Shown: piece after piece, positions 17,236 through 49,524 of the stretch
Layout of the letters: every line of letters begins with the position of its first letter
Position numbering within the stretch: position 1 is the first letter of the stretch
IMG/VR virus record: IMGVR_UViG_3300028048_003227
Coordinates: 48,409-112,408 of that record
Strand: one strand, 5' to 3'
Source: a virus
Lineage: Duplodnaviria; Caudoviricetes
DNA: 64,000 nucleotides
Program-made: the position numbers and the translations under genes
The notes under the pieces: generated by a model
The model's database searches: none
Told to the model about the DNA's origin: nothing
What the model saw: the letters and a program-made list of their open reading frames with translations, nothing else

Positions 17236-17363
17236 GAATATGTGAAGCAGATGGGATGTGCTACTAGAGAAAATCAAAACGCTAGGCACCTACTTGAAAA
17301 AGTTTGATAGGGAGTTAAGAGAATGTTATTTAGGCTATGTTGGTTCGAATCCAACCATATTCA
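17236..17363 (+). ncRNA. tRNA-like RNA with 60-nt anticodon-loop expansion
   Basis: GAATATG/CATATTC acceptor, agca/tgct D-stem, gttgg-ttcgaat-ccaac T-arm. Confidence 0.65.
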
Positions 17364-17370
17364 CAAGGAA

Positions 17371-17957: not shown

Positions 17958-18111
17958 CGGGATGTAGTTCAGTTGGTAGAATGCCTGGTTTGGTTACAGT
18001 TAACCAATAGCTGAGAAATTGGTGTTCGGATATAATAAAGGAAGATTCATGAGTTCGAATCTCATATATCCGACGACCAGGTGGTCCTCCGTTCGAGTCG
18101 GAGTATCCCGA
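17958..18111 (+). tRNA. tRNA-Pro(UGG) split by 81-nt insert (17994-18074) between positions 36/37
   Basis: joined exons give CCTGG-TTTGGGA-CCAGG with C1-G72, A73. Confidence 0.85.
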
Positions 18112-18149
18112 CTTAATAAATGTCATTTAATATTTTATTATATTTATAT

Positions 18150-19010
18150 ATGATAAATATTTGTAAATATTGTGGCAAAAAATTTGAAACTTCTAACTCA
18201 AAACAAGTTTTCTGCAGTAAAGAGTGTAGTGCAAAATATCAACAACAAAATGCAATAGATAGTGTTAAAAAATATAAAGAGATTCGAATTCAAAAGTATT
18301 ACGAATCTCCAAAGAAATGCAAATATTGCGATTCTATTTTACCGTATGAAGAGAGATCTAAAACATTTTGTAATTCTTCTTGCGCCGCCGCATATAATAA
18401 TTCAAAAAGAATTAGACATTCTTGGAGTGATGAACAGAAAAAGAATTTATCTGAAATAATGATTAATAAACACAAAGATAATTATAATGATAATTCTTCA
18501 AACACCACAACCACACCCAGAAAGAAAATATGTAAGTATTGTGGAAAAGAATTTGTTTCTCATCAATTATCAAGTGGTAAATATTCAAGTTCTAAATTTT
18601 GTTCACATGAATGTAAAAGGTTAAACAATATAGAAGTTGGTAAAAAAGCTATAATCATAAACAAAGAAAAAGGAACGTGGAAGCCTTGGCAAAGTAGAAA
18701 TATTAGTTCTTATCCCGAAAAATTTTTCGAAAAGGTTTTAGATAATAACTTTATATCATATATAAGAGAAAAATACATTGATGGTTATTTTTTAGATTTT
18801 TATATAGAGAAAAACAATAGAGTTATCGATTTGGAAATAGATGGGGATCAACACGAAGAAACACAGGAAAAAGATCGAATAAGAGATGAATATTTAAAAG
18901 ATCAAAATATTGAGGTGTATAGAATTAAATGGAATTCTATTAATTCAAATAAGGGAAAAGAATCTATGAAAAACAAAATAGATGATTTTTTAAGTTTCTA
19001 TAATAAATAA
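18150..19010 (+). CDS. free-standing homing endonuclease (Zn-finger repeats plus Vsr/DUF559-like domain)
   Basis: CxxC...FCSxxC repeats; YFLDF...LEIDGDQH. Confidence 0.8.
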   Translation: MINICKYCGKKFETSNSKQVFCSKECSAKYQQQNAIDSVKKYKEIRIQKYYESPKKCKYCDSILPYEERSKTFCNSSCAAAYNNSKRIRHSWSDEQKKNLSEIMINKHKDNYNDNSSNTTTTPRKKICKYCGKEFVSHQLSSGKYSSSKFCSHECKRLNNIEVGKKAIIINKEKGTWKPWQSRNISSYPEKFFEKVLDNNFISYIREKYIDGYFLDFYIEKNNRVIDLEIDGDQHEETQEKDRIRDEYLKDQNIEVYRIKWNSINSNKGKESMKNKIDDFLSFYNK

Positions 19011-19020
19011 ACTCATATTT

Positions 19021-19712
19021 GGCCTCGTGGTGGAATAGGTAGACACAAGGGACTCGTAAAGCATTGATTTATAATCATTATAATCAATTATGGGTTGCAC
19101 CCTCCGAAAGGAGAGATGTAGAACCTCCCTAATTCGGTGAAAGCTAAGTTTGGATGTACAGGAATGTATCGGATAATCGTCTAAATTAGTTGGTGAATTA
19201 TCAACAGTAGTACATAGTTAACTGATTTTCAGTAATGATAGCAGTCGTTTAGAATCTATGTGTAAGAAGACAGTCCAGATATGCTAATACCGAGCCAATG
19301 TTAAAATTACGAAATAGGTGATGCCGTAGGTGAATAGCTTCAGCCGAAAGTACAACACGCCGACCAACCCCAGCGGGAGTATGTTCGTAACCAATAGACA
19401 GTGTGTAGAGACTATACAGGAGGGACCTAAGTTGAAAGTATAATAATGGCGCGAAATTTAGTTAGTTTGTTAACTGCTAATACCGATTATAGAGATGTAT
19501 ACTCTTCATATCGGTGCTAAAATAAGGTTATTATCTTGCAAGATTTCAATATGGTTAAGAGAGAGTCCAGACCACGAACAATGTTCTCAATAGATTAAAG
19601 AGTTTATTCGCCTACATGGTTCTATTGAATGAAGTTGGTAGCAAAAGCTATAGTGGTACGTAAAATCCCTCGGACAGCAATGTCCGTGCCGGTTCGACTC
19701 CGGCCGGGGCTA
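19021..19712 (+). tRNA. tRNA-Leu(UAA) containing a group I intron
   Basis: exons 19021-19054 and 19661-19712 give AGGGA-CTTAAAA-TCCCT. Confidence 0.88.
19055..19660 (+). mobile_element. group I intron (IC3-like), 606 nt, no ORF
   Basis: 5' exon ends in U, intron ends in G; P/Q/R/S-like AATTCGGTGAAA, AATACCGAGC, GTAGAGACTA, AAGAGAGAGTCC; cctcc/ggagg P3. Confidence 0.88.
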
Positions 19713-19717
19713 CAAAT

Positions 19718-19804
19718 GGGAGTCTTGGTAGCTGGAAAAATCAGCAGACTGTAAATCTGTCGCATACAAATAAGCCTATGGGGGTTCGAGTCCCTCGGCT
19801 CCCA
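19718..19804 (+). tRNA. tRNA-Tyr(GUA), degenerate D-arm
   Basis: GCAGA-CTGTAAA-TCTGT; GGGAGTC/GGCTCCC. Confidence 0.75.
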
Positions 19805-19813
19805 CACTCATAT

Positions 19814-19930
19814 ATCACTTTAGCTCAAGAGTTCGTTATCAAAGACACGTTGGTCTTCGAGACTGACGTTATAAAAGAGCCCCGGATTTTACTGGGAGAT
19901 GTGCCGTGCAACGAGTAGGTACAGGTGATG
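19814..19930 (+). ncRNA. tRNA-like RNA with 50-nt D-loop, 6-nt anticodon loop and 12-nt T-loop
   Basis: all four stems pair but loops are non-canonical. Confidence 0.55.
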
Positions 19931-19936
19931 ATTTAT

Positions 19937-20029
19937 TACGGATTAGCTCAGAGGTTAGAGCTTAATTGGATGAACCCGAGTTCTTACATAAGGCATCAGT
20001 GGTCGTAGGTTCGAATCCTGCATCCGTAG
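19937..20029 (+). ncRNA. tRNA-like RNA with expanded, branched anticodon domain
   Basis: TACGGAT/ATCCGTA; canonical D and T arms. Confidence 0.65.
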
Positions 20030-20030
20030 C

Positions 20031-20114
20031 AAGAACCAACTGGTAGGAGGTAGTATACACAATTGGGTGAGTTGCGAGCTATATTCGCGCTGTGGGGTGT
20101 ATAATTTGGTTCTT
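20031..20114 (+). ncRNA. putative small structured RNA
   Basis: aagaacca/tggttctt, tatacac/gtgtata and gcgag/ttcgc nested stems. Confidence 0.4.
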
Positions 20115-20119
20115 TTTGT

Positions 20120-20194
20120 GGTCCTGTAGCCCAACTGGAAGATGGCAATAGACTTAGGATCTATTCAGTGAGAGTTCGAATCTCTCCAGGACTA
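20120..20194 (+). tRNA. tRNA-Leu(UAG) with short variable arm
   Basis: ATAGA-CTTAGGA-TCTAT; 5-nt variable region. Confidence 0.8.
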
Positions 20195-20196
20195 CT

Positions 20197-20379
20197 AAAT
20201 ATCAAGTGAGGGTAGAAGGAATGCCTTGAGATTTTGAAGAGTAGGTTGCAGTGAAATTCAAAATTGAGATAGGAGACGGTGGTACAGGGTTCTGTGAGAA
20301 ATTCGATATGTGCATGGAACCCCGAGGCCGATGGAGTTCTCGACTGACTGCAAGGTTGGAGAACAGTAACTTGATATTT
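20197..20379 (+). ncRNA. unknown structured RNA (about 183 nt)
   Basis: 11-bp closing stem; ttgcagt/actgcaa loop-loop complement. Confidence 0.55.
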
Positions 20380-20383
20380 TTAT

Positions 20384-20457
20384 TGAAGTGTAGCGCAATT
20401 GGTCAGAGCATCAGATTTTGGTTCTGAGGGTTGTGAGTTCGAGTCTCACCACTTCAA
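20384..20457 (+). tRNA. tRNA-Gln(UUG)
   Basis: TCAGA-TTTTGGT-TCTGA. Confidence 0.9.
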
Positions 20458-20477
20458 CAAAATAACTCATATGGAAA

Positions 20478-20552
20478 GACCTCGTAGCTCAGTTGGTTTA
20501 GAGCACCTCCCTTTTAAGGAGGGGGTCACGAGTTCGAGCCTCGTCGGGGTCA
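20478..20552 (+). tRNA. tRNA-Lys(UUU)
   Basis: CCTCC-CTTTTAA-GGAGG. Confidence 0.9.
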
Positions 20553-20637
20553 CAAATAGTATGGGTCAAAAGACATAATCTTGCAAGGATTATAATACAG
20601 TAACTAATCCCATACTTTTAAATCCACAATGGCAGAT

Positions 20638-20685
20638 GCGCACAGTCCCGGAGTGGTTGAGGGAGGAGGGCTTGCAATAACCTCC
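20638..20685 (+). pseudogene. 5' fragment of a tRNA (GCA triplet in an enlarged loop, Cys-like)
   Basis: D-arm and ggagg/cctcc stem only; no T-arm. Confidence 0.4.
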
Positions 20686-20696
20686 AAACAATAGGA

Positions 20697-20771
20697 AGCC
20701 TTGTAAGCTTAATTGGTAGAGTCCTGATCAGAAGGTCGGGGGGGTTAAGAGTTCGAATCTCTTCAAGGCAA
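20697..20771 (+). ncRNA. tRNA-like RNA with 8-nt non-canonical anticodon loop
   Basis: gccttg/caaggc, cctga-tcagaagg-tcggg, canonical T-arm. Confidence 0.55.
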
Positions 20772-20829
20772 CTAATTCTAAATGTTTTTCATTTCTTATA
20801 TATTTTTAATAAATTAAACACAGATTTAC

Positions 20830-21267
20830 ATGAAGAAACTTTTTCTTGCTATCGCAATGATGTTTGGAGCACTCGCTGCTACATCTTGCAAGGATACTGT
20901 TGCAGTTGTGTACAGTATCAATGTTGAGGGAAGCGCTAACGGTGACGTGGTTGTGACTTTCCCTAACGGTAATCTTGAACTTAATGGACAGACCGGTCTT
21001 CTTTTCGCTTATTCAAATGATACCGCTCCTCTCACTAAGGCTGCTGTAAAGGGTGTTGCTGTTGAGGAAGCTGCAGAGAGTGATCAGAAGGAGGTTCGTT
21101 CCCTCGCAGAGACCATCGAGAGTGGGTTTACTGTTGTCTTTAAGGATGCCACCGCTGGTGGTGAGTATCACGTAAAGATTCACGGATATGCTAAGGAGCC
21201 TACCACAGGTATTACTATCCTGATTGATAAGTCCTTTGATTATCCCGCTCCTGTTGATCAGAAGTAA
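20830..21267 (+). CDS. lipoprotein (signal peptidase II signal)
   Basis: MKK-hydrophobic-ATSC lipobox. Confidence 0.8.
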   Translation: MKKLFLAIAMMFGALAATSCKDTVAVVYSINVEGSANGDVVVTFPNGNLELNGQTGLLFAYSNDTAPLTKAAVKGVAVEEAAESDQKEVRSLAETIESGFTVVFKDATAGGEYHVKIHGYAKEPTTGITILIDKSFDYPAPVDQK

Positions 21268-21297
21268 TTATGATTTGCCACTGTGTGGCAAATTTAT

Positions 21298-21370
21298 GCT
21301 CGGTTAGTGAAGTGGTAATCACGCTACCCTTTCAAGGTAGAGTCGCGCTGTTCAATTCAGGCACCGAGTA
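21298..21370 (+). tRNA. tRNA-Glu(UUC)
   Basis: CTACC-CTTTCAA-GGTAG. Confidence 0.85.
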
Positions 21371-21397
21371 CAAATTATTATTTATAGTAAATTAAAC

Positions 21398-21470
21398 GGC
21401 TTGGTGGCGCAATGGTCAGCGCAATTGACTGTTAATCAATGGGTTATAGGTTCGAGTCCTGTCCAAGCCG
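21398..21470 (+). tRNA. tRNA-Asn(GUU)
   Basis: ATTGA-CTGTTAA-TCAAT, G73. Confidence 0.9.
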
Positions 21471-21479
21471 CAAAAATAT

Positions 21480-21553
21480 GGTGCATTGGTGAAGCTGGTT
21501 ATCATGCTACCCTGTCACGGTAGAGTTCGTCGGTTCGAACCCGTCATGCACCG
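21480..21553 (+). tRNA. tRNA-Asp(GUC)
   Basis: CTACC-CTGTCAC-GGTAG, G73. Confidence 0.9.
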
Positions 21554-21659
21554 CGTGAGCCCGAAGTACAAGGGATCGAAGATAGGAAATCTTTGTCATT
21601 TCCTCCGAATCGTAGGTCGGCACAGTTACATCTCTGGGGATAGTATAAAAGATGTTTAT

Positions 21660-21734
21660 GGGGCCGTAGCAAAATTGGTAACCGCGCAGCATTTGCACTG
21701 CTGAGATTTGAGGGTTCGAGTCCCTTCGGCTCCA
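21660..21734 (+). tRNA. tRNA-Ala(UGC)
   Basis: G3:U70; CAGCA-TTTGCAC-TGCTG. Confidence 0.9.
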
Positions 21735-21744
21735 CGACTTGTAC

Positions 21745-21936
21745 AACTAACGCTTCACGGAATAAACTCGATGGATTGGAGAAACATCGGGGTGTGAACC
21801 GCAAAAGGTGATATAAGCAGGTGTAGGATGATGTCATTAACTCCAAATATAGGACATGTAAAGTAACACTGAAGGGTATCACTGGAAGAGTACTAAGAGA
21901 AATCCTTTTTAGAGACTGTGTCAACATGTGTTAGTT
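21745..21936 (+). ncRNA. unknown structured RNA (about 192 nt)
   Basis: aactaacgc/gtgttagtt closing stem; ttggag/ctccaa loop-loop complement. Confidence 0.5.
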
Positions 21937-22032
21937 TAGGTATTGCCCATCAACCAAGCAGTTGAATGGGGTAACGGGATCGCTCGAAGAACGATTCTTG
22001 GGTTGGCCGCATTACCGTAAATGCGGCATTTT

Positions 22033-22192
22033 GGGAGCATAGCTCAGTTGGTTTAGAGCACCTGCCTTAATACAGGGTAATCCACTGTGACGGATTAGCA
22101 AGATGTTAAAAGTGGTGAAGTGCATAATAAGAGTTCGATTCTCTTCATCTTGCCCAAGCAGGGGGTCATTAGTTCGAATCTAATTGTTCCCA
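22033..22192 (+). tRNA. tRNA-Val(UAC) split by 85-nt insert (22070-22154) between positions 35/36
   Basis: joined exons give CCTGC-CTTACAA-GCAGG with Val-type body. Confidence 0.85.
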
Positions 22193-22388: not shown

Positions 22389-22768
22389 AGTTCTTTGAAG
22401 GTATAAGATAAATGCAGACAGACCTACTCCCACTATTGTAGGAGACTACCATGACAATAAATGGTTTAAACAGCACCCGGATCGTAAGTCGGGACCATGA
22501 GGAATGAGAGTTATATGAAAGTATAACCTATCTACAAACCAGTGAAACCTGAACGGAATCACTGAAGATATTGTAGTTTGTAATAATGGAAGTCTGATGA
22601 GAAAACAAGCTTATACTGATGTAGAGGCTTGCAAAGAGCAAAATCGGCAAATCGCGTAATGCCTTCGGTATAAACCCGACGTTGGTTGGTGTGTTGCAAC
22701 GATAGTCAGAACACAATCGCTTATGTGGTTCCTGGAGTGGCTTATTGAGCGTAATCAATTAAAGAACT
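22389..22768 (+). ncRNA. unknown large structured RNA (about 380 nt)
   Basis: agttcttt/aaagaact ends, gaaggtat/atgccttc, many hairpins. Confidence 0.55.
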
Positions 22769-31217: not shown

Positions 31218-31463
31218 ATGAAGGTAATTGAAGAACATAGAAAGGACTTGGAACCCAAGAAATCTAAAAAATATATCTACAAGTGTTACCACTGTGGTAG
31301 TGTGCTGGAGGTAGATAGTGAAGATATACATTATAAGGAAGAGTGGGGTGATATAGAAGAATATTTCACTTGTCCTGTGTGTGGTCGTCGCCGTTTGGTG
31401 TTTACAATTAAGCTACATCATTTAAAATCATTAAGAAAGTTATTTAACAAGAAATATAGGTGA
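31218..31463 (+). CDS. small Zn-ribbon protein
   Basis: CYHCG...CPVCG. Confidence 0.65.
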   Translation: MKVIEEHRKDLEPKKSKKYIYKCYHCGSVLEVDSEDIHYKEEWGDIEEYFTCPVCGRRRLVFTIKLHHLKSLRKLFNKKYR

Positions 31464-31969
31464 AATACTTATTTCTCGACATAGACGGGGTCCTCAATCA
31501 CGAAGAGTGGTATGAGAAGAGGATAAAGGATTATAAAGACACTTTTACTTGTTGGGAGCAGGAGTGTTTTGATCCTGATTGTGTAGAGAGGGTAAATAGG
31601 ATTCTTAAAGAGACTGGTGCAAGACTTGTTGTGAGTAGTAGCTGGAGGTTAGATTTAAAATTAGCAAGAATATTCTCTCTTGTCGGTCTCCCGACCGATT
31701 TTGATGTTACTCCCACGGGAAACATCTACACAGGCGATTGTTATGATACCAGGGGAGAAGAAATAGAAGCTTTTCTCGAAGATAATCCTTGTGATCAGTA
31801 TGTTATCCTTGATGATGATAGAGATTTCAGTGAAGAACAATTAAATGAGCATTTTGTTCACTGCTGTACGGATTACCTACAGGCTCTTCAAGAAGGAAAT
31901 GAAGGACAAACAGGATTAACTGAATTAAAGATGAGGAAAGCAATCAATATATTAAATAAAATACAATAA
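31460..31969 (+). CDS. HAD phosphatase, Swiss-Army-knife RNA-repair-like
   Basis: FLDIDGVLN, VVSSSWR, YVILDDD. Confidence 0.8.
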   Translation: MKYLFLDIDGVLNHEEWYEKRIKDYKDTFTCWEQECFDPDCVERVNRILKETGARLVVSSSWRLDLKLARIFSLVGLPTDFDVTPTGNIYTGDCYDTRGEEIEAFLEDNPCDQYVILDDDRDFSEEQLNEHFVHCCTDYLQALQEGNEGQTGLTELKMRKAINILNKIQ

Positions 31970-32727: not shown

Positions 32728-32890
32728 TCAAGTCACACACCGAACATCAAAGACTTCACTAAATATAGTGGGGTCTTTTGTTATTTATATGTGAGTGTAA
32801 AACTCGCGTATTTTGCGCTTGAAACAGGTGAGATAATAAAATGGTTATCTTTTTTGTATAACTTTGTTAAAACGAGATTTAGATAGCAAA

Positions 32891-33520
32891 ATGAAAGGAT
32901 TAGTAGATAACTTTGAACTCTTGGGTAGATACCTATTCGAAAAACGCACTCCCCTTACTGAAGATCAGTTCTATTTTCTTCAGATTCTTGTGAGAGGAAA
33001 AGATGGAAATCATGTGTGTGGCAATAATAAAAATAGACTTGTTAAATACTATGTGATTCGATCCAAGGAACAGTTACTCGGGTTGAAAGATGAGATAGTT
33101 GGTATATGTGGAGTTGTGAACGGTCGTGCATATATTCATCCAACTCGTAGGTCCTTAAAGGAGGTTGCTAATCGAGCTCTTGAAGATACTGCACACACCT
33201 TTGTGTCACAGAACTGGATTGGATTGCGAGGTGTTTATTCTACTGCAGCGGGCCAGTCTTTTGTGAGTAGCGATAAACAGTTTATAGTAGATCTGGATGA
33301 CTTCACTTATGATCAAGCAAAGGAAGTGTTTGATTTTGTAAATACACTTCGTGGTAGGAAAGACGACATGGGCAACATCTCACAAATAATCCTTCCAACA
33401 GTACATGGTTATCATTTGATTACCAATGCGTTTGATGTTGGTGAGTTTACGAAGAAATACCCGGGGATTGATATTCATAAAAACAATCCAACTCTACTGT
33501 ATTATAAAGCAAGTAAGTAA
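32891..33520 (+). CDS. hypothetical protein, possible primase-like fold
   Basis: IVDLD and PTxxGYHLIT motifs. Confidence 0.6.
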   Translation: MKGLVDNFELLGRYLFEKRTPLTEDQFYFLQILVRGKDGNHVCGNNKNRLVKYYVIRSKEQLLGLKDEIVGICGVVNGRAYIHPTRRSLKEVANRALEDTAHTFVSQNWIGLRGVYSTAAGQSFVSSDKQFIVDLDDFTYDQAKEVFDFVNTLRGRKDDMGNISQIILPTVHGYHLITNAFDVGEFTKKYPGIDIHKNNPTLLYYKASK

Positions 33521-48045: not shown

Positions 48046-49524
48046 ATGACACTCAAAGAACTATTTAAACAATCCGAAGACGGATTCGTAAACTACAGGG
48101 CAACGTTTACGAAGATTGATGCGGTCTTTCCTATAGAAGGGGCGGATCGTCTTGTGAGAGCTGTAGTATGTGGAAGAGATGTGGTGGTTTCAAAAGACCT
48201 CCCTCTTGACAGTACGTATGTTTATATCCCTGTTGAAACAAGTCTTTCTCATAAATATTTGAGTAAGAATAACCTCTATCGTATCTCAAGCGAATCCTAT
48301 CAACTTAATGATAACTTCGAAGAGGTTACTAAAATGCTTAATGAAGGGAAGAGTCTTGGAGATTGTGTGAGTATGGGTGGGTTCTTTGAGAAGAATGGAC
48401 GAGTAAAACAAATAAGGATTCGTGGAGTATATTCACAAGGTTATCTTGCTGATATCCAATCACTTAGAAACGCGTACCCTGTGCTTGATCAATGGATGGT
48501 TGATGAGTTTGAAGAGCTCGATGGGGTGAGTTTTGATGTGATCGGAGATGAGATATTCTGTGAGAAGTACCTTGTTGGTGGTAAGCATCTGGTTGATCCA
48601 CAGGCAGGTGGACAAAAACATTTCCGTCAGCGTTCCAAGAACCTCAAACACGCGCGATTACTCGTTCCGGGGCAGTTCTCTTATCACTATGATACCGCTC
48701 AGTTTGCAGATCATTATAAAGAGTTTAATCCCTCTAATGATGTAAGTATATCTGTGAAGGTACACGGAAGTAGCGGTATATTTGCTAATGTCCTTTGTTA
48801 TAAGCAAGCGGAAGGATGGTTTAAGAAAATTATTTATTCTATCTTTAAACCCAAAGAATACAGGCTTCTCTATGCCTCTCGCACAAAGATACGCAATGAG
48901 CGAGTTTATGACACTCCAAAAGAATCTAAGTTTTTCTATGGAAGTGATATCTGGGCTCCTGTTCGCGACCTACTCGCAGGACATATAGATAAAGGGATGA
49001 TCGTGTATGGAGAGATATGTGGATATGTTGAAGGAACCACGAAGATGATTCAGAAAGGTCATGACTATGGATGTGCACCAGGTCGATGGAAGTTCATGCC
49101 TTATAGGATTGTTAATGTGGATAGAGGAGGGAGAAGGACCGAATGGAACTTAAGAGATGTGGTGAAGTGGACGGACGATCTTCGTCAGCATCTCGCTATT
49201 GAACACCGATATGAAGGAGTGGATAAGATTATGCCTTGTCCCATTCTCTACGACGGACCGCTTGGAGATCTCTATCCTGATCTCAGTAAAGATGACGCTA
49301 GTTGGAACTTAGGACTTCTCGAAAGGATGAAGAGTGACAAGGAGAGATTTGGAATGGAGTTGCAGGAACCCCTATGTAAGATGAAAGCGCCTCGTGAAGG
49401 ACTTGTTATAAGAATTAATAACGACCCCGTTCCTCGAGCATGGAAGCTCAAGACCGCAGCTCACTACGACCTCGAGCGTAAGAGTCACGATAGTGGGGAG
49501 AGAGATATAGAAGAAGAATCTTAA
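48046..49524 (+). CDS. ATP-dependent RNA ligase, Rnl2/DRB0094-like
   Basis: PIEGAD N-domain; KVHG, YGEI, EGLVIR, KLK motifs. Confidence 0.85.
   Translation: MTLKELFKQSEDGFVNYRATFTKIDAVFPIEGADRLVRAVVCGRDVVVSKDLPLDSTYVYIPVETSLSHKYLSKNNLYRISSESYQLNDNFEEVTKMLNEGKSLGDCVSMGGFFEKNGRVKQIRIRGVYSQGYLADIQSLRNAYPVLDQWMVDEFEELDGVSFDVIGDEIFCEKYLVGGKHLVDPQAGGQKHFRQRSKNLKHARLLVPGQFSYHYDTAQFADHYKEFNPSNDVSISVKVHGSSGIFANVLCYKQAEGWFKKIIYSIFKPKEYRLLYASRTKIRNERVYDTPKESKFFYGSDIWAPVRDLLAGHIDKGMIVYGEICGYVEGTTKMIQKGHDYGCAPGRWKFMPYRIVNVDRGGRRTEWNLRDVVKWTDDLRQHLAIEHRYEGVDKIMPCPILYDGPLGDLYPDLSKDDASWNLGLLERMKSDKERFGMELQEPLCKMKAPREGLVIRINNDPVPRAWKLKTAAHYDLERKSHDSGERDIEEES

Follow-up and report, generated by a model that had tools for sequence, protein, structure and literature searches.

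The tRNA genes of Lak megaphages carry introns that were termed 'enigmatic' when they were reported (Devoto et al., 2019; PMC6784885, Fig. 4, Table S6). Except for a tRNA-like one in a Thr tRNA, these introns gave no Rfam match, and neither a shared structure nor a mechanism was offered for them (PMC6784885). No paper answering how Lak-type tRNA introns are removed was found in the literature since 2019, and later Lak and jumbo-phage papers added no mechanism. Two such elements interrupt a tRNA-Pro and a tRNA-Val gene of the window, i.e. the 64,000-nucleotide (nt) stretch analysed here (positions 48,409 to 112,408 of virus record IMGVR_UViG_3300028048_003227). A preliminary description of the window had proposed them as a new class of tRNA intron that no known family would match. 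This held for Rfam, where a search with both inserts returned no family and only weak tRNA matches, but not for the literature, since the same inserts, running from N-UACA(G/A) to an 8-base-pair (bp) stem and a C, had been listed for Lak tRNAs in 2019, one of them noted as tRNA-like (PMC6784885, Table S6). As judged from their sequences, the window introns are Lak-type, a reported but unexplained kind and not a new class; what this analysis adds is the fold, the exact boundary rule, and a specific splicing route to test.

All four Lak introns of the 2019 study have the architecture of the window introns. They show the same N-U-A start followed by a first helix (P1), the 8-bp stem, the T-arm, the terminal C, and the position in the anticodon loop. 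As in Lak, the window inserts lie in the anticodon loop of tRNAs of a large phage, with intron-less alleles in relatives. The Lak introns differ in residing in host tRNAs other than Pro and Val, and they have a short P1 loop and an A-rich tail, whereas the window introns form a fully base-paired pseudoknot.

Both inserts are real and interrupt tRNA genes, and their extents and parts were largely described correctly at the outset. The tRNA-Pro(UGG) gene consists of exon 1 (17958..17993, tRNA positions 1-36; all features given here lie on the + strand), an 81-nt intron at 36/37 (17994..18074), and exon 2 (18075..18111, tRNA positions 37-73). Its alignment with the intron-less, syntenic tRNA-Pro of a close relative (contig L617) opens a gap exactly at the insert, and deletion of 17994-18074 leaves a canonical tRNA-Pro with the loop UU-UGG-GA, a C1-G72 pair, and A73. 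The tRNA-Val(UAC) gene comprises exon 1 (22033..22069, tRNA positions 1-35), an 85-nt intron at 35/36 (22070..22154), and exon 2 (22155..22192, tRNA positions 36-73); its nearest intron-less tRNA is likewise a Val(UAC), and deletion of 22070-22154 restores the loop CU-UAC-AA and A73. Sliding is impossible at the junctions of either insert. The window contains two instances of the shared pattern of a TACAG start and a T-arm, against none in 100 shuffles, which is far more than chance would give. An independent 221-kb assembly has both inserts with 100% identity, and a third has the Val insert (L623, L624), so that they are not assembly artefacts. A BLAST search of both loci against cultured phages matched the exon halves and nothing more, and no further Pro or Val tRNA gene was found in the record. 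Minimum-energy folds of single precursors were uninformative.

The Pro intron is composed of a spacer (17994-17996), P1 (17997-18002/18008-18013), the pseudoknot helix P2 (18003-18007/18019-18023), the 8-bp acceptor-like stem P3 (18026-18033/18066-18073), a GG dinucleotide (18040-18041), a T-arm (18049-18065), and the terminal C (18074). The corresponding elements of the Val intron are the spacer (22070-22072), P1 (22073-22075/22085-22087), P2 (22078-22083/22092-22097), P3 (22098-22105/22146-22153), the T-arm (22129-22145), and the terminal C (22154). The 6-bp hairpin with a CTG(A/T)GA loop that had been noted earlier exists as a helix, namely the second helix of the pseudoknot. The conserved hairpin is instead that of P1, in which the CAG at insert positions 4-6 pairs with the CTG of that loop. 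The initial parts list had missed P1 and the pseudoknot and held no route for the 5' cut.

Pattern scans over viral and metagenome contigs, filtered for an outer tRNA, yielded two kinds of tRNA-in-tRNA inserts, 24 in which a tRNA runs from its first position through to CCA, and 45 distinct inserts of the window type, so that the expected homologues in other tRNAs do exist. The 45 members, all on phage contigs, measure 65-167 nt, interrupt tRNAs of 13 anticodon types, and occupy three phases (34/35, n=4; 35/36, n=22; 36/37, n=19). Two of the scans did not require a TACA start; the 17 members added thereby all start with N-U-A (one with N-C-A), after which comes a helix that is not fixed in sequence. 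A covariance model (R1) built from eight Val-like introns, with the Pro intron left out, finds the window Pro intron at its exact ends (31.2 bits) and the Lak introns of Phe (44.9 bits) and Gly (36.7 bits) at the ends set by the boundary rule described below. R1 did not match the CCA-ended inserts, and one ordinary tRNA was matched weakly.

The members share a 5' spacer of three unpaired bases, A or U in 42/45, U in 43/45, and A in 45/45. A tRNA-Asn intron at 34/35 (L617:4389-4465) starts with A-U-C, the one exception to A at the third position, and an intron of L213 starts with A-A-A, an exception at the second. P1 begins at intron position 4 in 44/45 members, compared with 13.8 in shuffles. 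The P1 loop and the following linker form an H-type pseudoknot of at least 4 bp in 20/45 (3.0 in shuffles), and members without a 4-bp pseudoknot possess a short A-rich loop and tail. Further 3' follow the 8-bp acceptor-like stem, a middle of 7-102 nt, the T-arm, the closing strand, and a single C. A GG between the stem and the T-arm is present in all 45 members, and among short linkers in 31/31 against 16 expected. Some members (L437, L429) have a UCCGA T-loop. The helices covary strongly: in an alignment fitted to the model, 97% of the cells are paired and 15 of the 16 pairs have changed on both sides. The tRNA mimicry that had been suggested for the inserts is borne out by this tRNA-shaped half and by long members that hold full D, anticodon, and variable arms. 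The series from near-complete tRNAs to a minimal mimic of 65 nt suggests that the intron descends from a whole tRNA gene whose elbow was kept under selection.

The ends of the introns are fixed by the introns themselves, at three anticodon phases, as had been surmised from the two window inserts. This follows from the agreement of allele pairs and from the lack of constraint on the exon bases at both junctions, where all four letters are found. The tRNA-Asp(GUC) of the window (21480..21554) lacks an intron, whereas two close relatives (L617/L619) have a near-identical allele interrupted by a 77-nt member of the family with exactly the ends that the rule gives. Lak Asn and Phe alleles with and without intron show the same rule ends, and so does the Pro gap mentioned above. 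The anticodon restored by the rule agrees with the nearest intron-less tRNA in 31/43 cases; when the ends are shifted, this falls to 12, 7, 4, and 2. In the 45 cases the exons are canonical, and joining them by the rule restores, every time, a 7-nt loop and the anticodon that is correct for the isotype. As a rule, complete genomes included, no second gene with the anticodon accompanies the interrupted one. These features point to introns that are very probably spliced in vivo. A published Tyr(GTA) tRNA of Lak A2 (L016:22541-22633) splices by the rule to an Asn(GUU) tRNA with G73, and an allele without the intron confirms this. Lak-type tRNAs are overlooked or wrongly named by annotation tools, as seen from this Lak 'Tyr' and from a false Ser call by ARAGORN on the window locus.

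Group I introns of bacterial and phage tRNAs share with the family the location in the anticodon loop, the use of several insertion phases, and the link to homing endonucleases. However, members of 65-167 nt are too short for a group I core, end in G in 0/45 cases, follow an exon-1 U in 20/45, and have no Rfam match. Group II introns are excluded by the same shortness, the missing Rfam match, and a GUGYG-type start motif in 0/45. With the tRNA introns of archaea and eukaryotes, removed by EndA/TSEN and a ligase, the family shares the short length, the probable splicing by proteins, and the place in the anticodon loop, but the full 4-bp central helix of their bulge-helix-bulge (BHB) motif can be drawn in 1/45, the position is not 37/38, and the window type contains a tRNA-like fold of its own. 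The earlier statement that the inserts are neither group I/II introns nor BHB introns is in line with these counts. An integrase attachment (att) site remnant is ruled out: the acceptor strand of the insert pairs within the insert and not with exon 1. In mascRNA and in the tRNA spacers of polycistronic guides, a tRNA mimic directs RNase P and RNase Z to a longer RNA for cleavage; the products are set free and not re-ligated, and a 5' pseudoknot module is absent.

The CCA-ended inserts likewise place a tRNA mimic within the anticodon loop of a phage tRNA. Starting at tRNA position 1 and ending in CCA, they lack a pseudoknot leader, are not matched by R1, and show no bias towards U at their second position (8/20), whereas the window type has a leader of 24-34 nt and ends at a single C. 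The cultured Cellulophaga phage phi17:2 (L657:4680-4830; NC_021798, ~142680-142830) contains a complete CCA-ended tRNA-Ile nested in a tRNA-like gene and provides a tractable phage-host pair for the CCA-ended class.

With moderate confidence, the window elements are best explained as mobile Lak-type introns that originated from tRNA genes and are removed by proteins rather than by self-splicing. A protein-dependent cut-and-ligate reaction appears somewhat probable. The 3' junction comes directly after a single unpaired base that terminates an acceptor-like stem, the place where, as already pointed out in the preliminary description, an RNase Z-type cut after the unpaired C would fall; RNase Z is known to cleave after the unpaired base that ends the acceptor stem (PMC7479834). 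The tRNA-shaped half, i.e. the elbow and the 8+5-bp arm, would be read by a host RNase Z-type enzyme, and exon 2 would be left with a 5'-phosphate. Between the 5' junction and the acceptor-like stem there are 24-34 nt, and this junction is measured from P1. RNase P was rejected as the 5' cutter: these 24-34 nt precede the acceptor stem, which places the mimic's position +1 within the intron. Trimming by an exonuclease to an overhang of constant length was rejected as well, since three phases exist. A pairing between exon 1 and the intron start in the manner of an internal guide sequence was plausible in Pro, Phe, and Thr and failed in most other members.

For the 5' cut RNase E/G is proposed, because the context of the site, G-N|W-U (W+1 in 42/45, U+2 in 43/45, G-2 in 28/45), would fit the uridine +2 ruler and the G-2 preference of RNase E, whose consensus is RN|WUU (PMC5222698, PMC8682795). 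G-2 is found in 28 of the 31 cases in which the anticodon has a G on offer, which exceeds phase permutations (p<1e-4). With the pseudoknot holding the single-stranded site in place, the enzyme would cut 3 nt 5' of P1 and would leave a 3'-hydroxyl (3'-OH) on exon 1. Bacteroides and an intron-carrying Bacteroidales metagenome-assembled genome (MAG) encode both RNase families; a check of four phages for RNase Z was negative. Both RNase E/G and RNase Z are hydrolytic and leave 3'-OH and 5'-phosphate ends. A phage ATP-dependent ligase would join these ends, as ATP-grasp ligases require a 5'-phosphate and a 3'-OH (PMC7824862). The candidate exon joiner is an Rnl2/DRB0094-like ATP-dependent RNA ligase at 48046..49524 (PF09414, E 1.4e-7, above the cut-off; weak TIGR02306 match), found by a direct Pfam scan after earlier family searches of the genome had missed it. 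The ligase gave no sequence match in the PDB, and homologues occur in 4/5 complete intron-bearing phages. On this scheme the family may well represent a distinct class of tRNA introns, excised by host RNase E/G and RNase Z and sealed by a phage ligase, a new ribozyme being less likely; RNase E/G with RNase Z as the particular cutting pair is a tentative choice that could easily prove wrong.

Several observations weigh against this scheme. Large phages often encode an RNA ligase in any case, and the complete intron-bearing phage G007 gave no match to the ligase family. P3, the T-loop, and the terminal C were partly imposed by the search patterns, which does not apply to P1, P2, U2-A3, and GG. 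The members are related, and the G-2 signal declines to p=0.06 once collapsed to unique anticodon-by-phase cases; the third intron base is A (45/45) in place of the U of the RNase E consensus, and the Val intron has U at -2. Since RNase Z needs no C discriminator, the invariant terminal C would stay unexplained. A C right after the cut, as in Val, Asp, and some Glu members, inhibits some RNase Zs, and some of these enzymes also need a mature 5' end (PMC7479834). A literature search for RNase Z acting on 13-bp arms found nothing.

The 5' cut is measured from P1, and no host tRNA enzyme is known to recognise this structure. This would be accounted for by a phage-encoded splicing endonuclease that recognises the pseudoknot, the tRNA mimic, or both and performs at least one cut, with phage end-healing enzymes and the ligase finishing the reaction. 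The only protein families common to four complete intron-bearing phages number six and include two metallophosphoesterases and an AEP (primase)-fold protein, but none of the six is a recognisable RNA endonuclease. The AEP-fold protein, encoded in the window at 32864..33520, is the only unexplained protein common to all complete intron-bearing genomes (5/5, against 0/22 genomes with CCA-ended inserts), its genes lie in RNA-repair neighbourhoods, and by this co-occurrence it is a tentative candidate accessory factor. It resembles primases (Z 6-7.4), however, gave no Foldseek match, and is also present in intron-free Bacteroidota phages (G047-G051, G058, pT24, cr116_1), so that its overlap with the introns can be explained by host range or ancestry. 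On balance, such an endonuclease seems unlikely. In Cellulophaga phage phi17:2 the AEP-fold gene adjoins a CCA-adding enzyme gene. A candidate end-healing enzyme is the HAD phosphatase at 31460..31969, by its DxD motif probably the protein behind a HAD_SAK_2 RNA-repair match.

Less plausible still is a new small self-splicing or self-cleaving ribozyme whose active site would be formed by the pseudoknot and the tRNA elbow and might bind the terminal C. In its favour are tertiary elements that are compact and conserved, a U2-A3 and a terminal C that hardly vary, ends set by the intron alone, and the repeated insertion at three phases, as predicted by reverse splicing. Very few bases are invariant beyond generic features of the tRNA elbow, though; A3 and U2 have the exceptions given above, both bases around the 5' scissile bond vary, and the middle ranges from 7 to 102 nt. 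The Rfam ribozyme and riboswitch models (HDV-like theta, preQ1-I, etc.) yielded no match up to E=1, a result to be read with the fact that short pseudoknots can escape such models. That the inserts are retained, the interrupted genes being decoy RNAs or dead copies left by selfish insertion, is the most doubtful reading: the array does hold other odd tRNA-like genes, but the exons are canonical, loop and anticodon are always rebuilt, and most interrupted genes are the only copies for their anticodons.

Protein-spliced Lak-type introns would spread between phages together with neighbouring free-standing endonucleases, as in collaborative homing. Directly 3' of tRNA-Pro lies a gene (18120..19010) for a Zn-finger/DUF559 free-standing endonuclease (Pfam DUF559, E 2e-10; PHROG HNH), a candidate homing partner; homologues at 42% lie downstream of the Pro introns of both L279 and L347, and the gene is missing at the intron-less Pro locus of L617. 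An endonuclease-like open reading frame (ORF) stands right downstream of 9/41 intron tRNAs and 11/267 intron-less ones (p=3e-4, uncorrected for relatedness). Insertion is recurrent, since the phase at which a given anticodon is interrupted varies among phages, and the set of interrupted tRNAs varies even among close relatives (Pro and Val in the window, Asp and Asn in L617). Mobility by the adjacent endonucleases is probable from these associations and fits collaborative homing. A cellular scan of 185,579 prokaryote genomes with a narrow pattern gave 32 matches and one true member, on a 287-kb Bacteroidales MAG contig that shares a gene with the window phage; with so narrow a pattern, absence from cellular tRNAs is not proven.

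If the proposed route is correct, a protein-dependent form of tRNA splicing exists in bacteria and makes use of hijacked processing enzymes. A phage tRNA would then depend on a phage ligase, its precursors may be shielded from anticodon nucleases, and a sequence-independent removable cassette of 65-85 nt would be at hand. The fold, the boundary rule, and the model of RNase E/G, RNase Z, and ligase reduce the question of 2019 to a few in vitro tests.

The window belongs to a 69%-complete, 112-kb virus record that also contains T4-like portal, capsid, and sheath genes, and relatives of its sequence come from rumen and gut data; the phage is large and of rumen/gut type. Its host appears to be a member of the Bacteroidales, as suggested by Lak (Prevotella), the Bacteroidales MAG contig with a very similar Pro intron, and the gene content. 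The tRNA array at ~17.2-22.9 kb holds further unusual genes. A tRNA-Leu(UAA) gene (19021-19712) has a 606-nt insert at 33/34 (19055-19660) that ends in G and follows an exon 1 ending in U; it is probably a group I intron, for which Rfam gave no detection, and a related intron resides in tRNA-Lys of L617 and also in L223. At 17236-17367, about 60 nt replace the anticodon loop of a tRNA body; the intron covariance model does not match there, and this is possibly another insert type. Two odd tRNA-like genes (19811-19931 and 19936-20031), with a long D-loop insert and an expanded anticodon region, respectively, are kept in L617, the former with compensatory changes in its anticodon-like stem. A tRNA-like gene at 20697-20771 (Rfam tRNA, 32 bits), in which a 4-nt loop closes the anticodon arm, is a possible decoy. 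Three structured-looking non-coding stretches between tRNAs (20186-20380, 21555-22030, and 22389-22768), for which Rfam has no match, are 82-96% conserved in relatives. Elsewhere, the record (window ORFs and record positions 1-48408) encodes QueC and FolE2 of the 7-deazaguanine pathway and an anaerobic ribonucleotide reductase, along with GMP reductase-like, Nudix, and ClpP-like proteins and eight DUF7487 genes.

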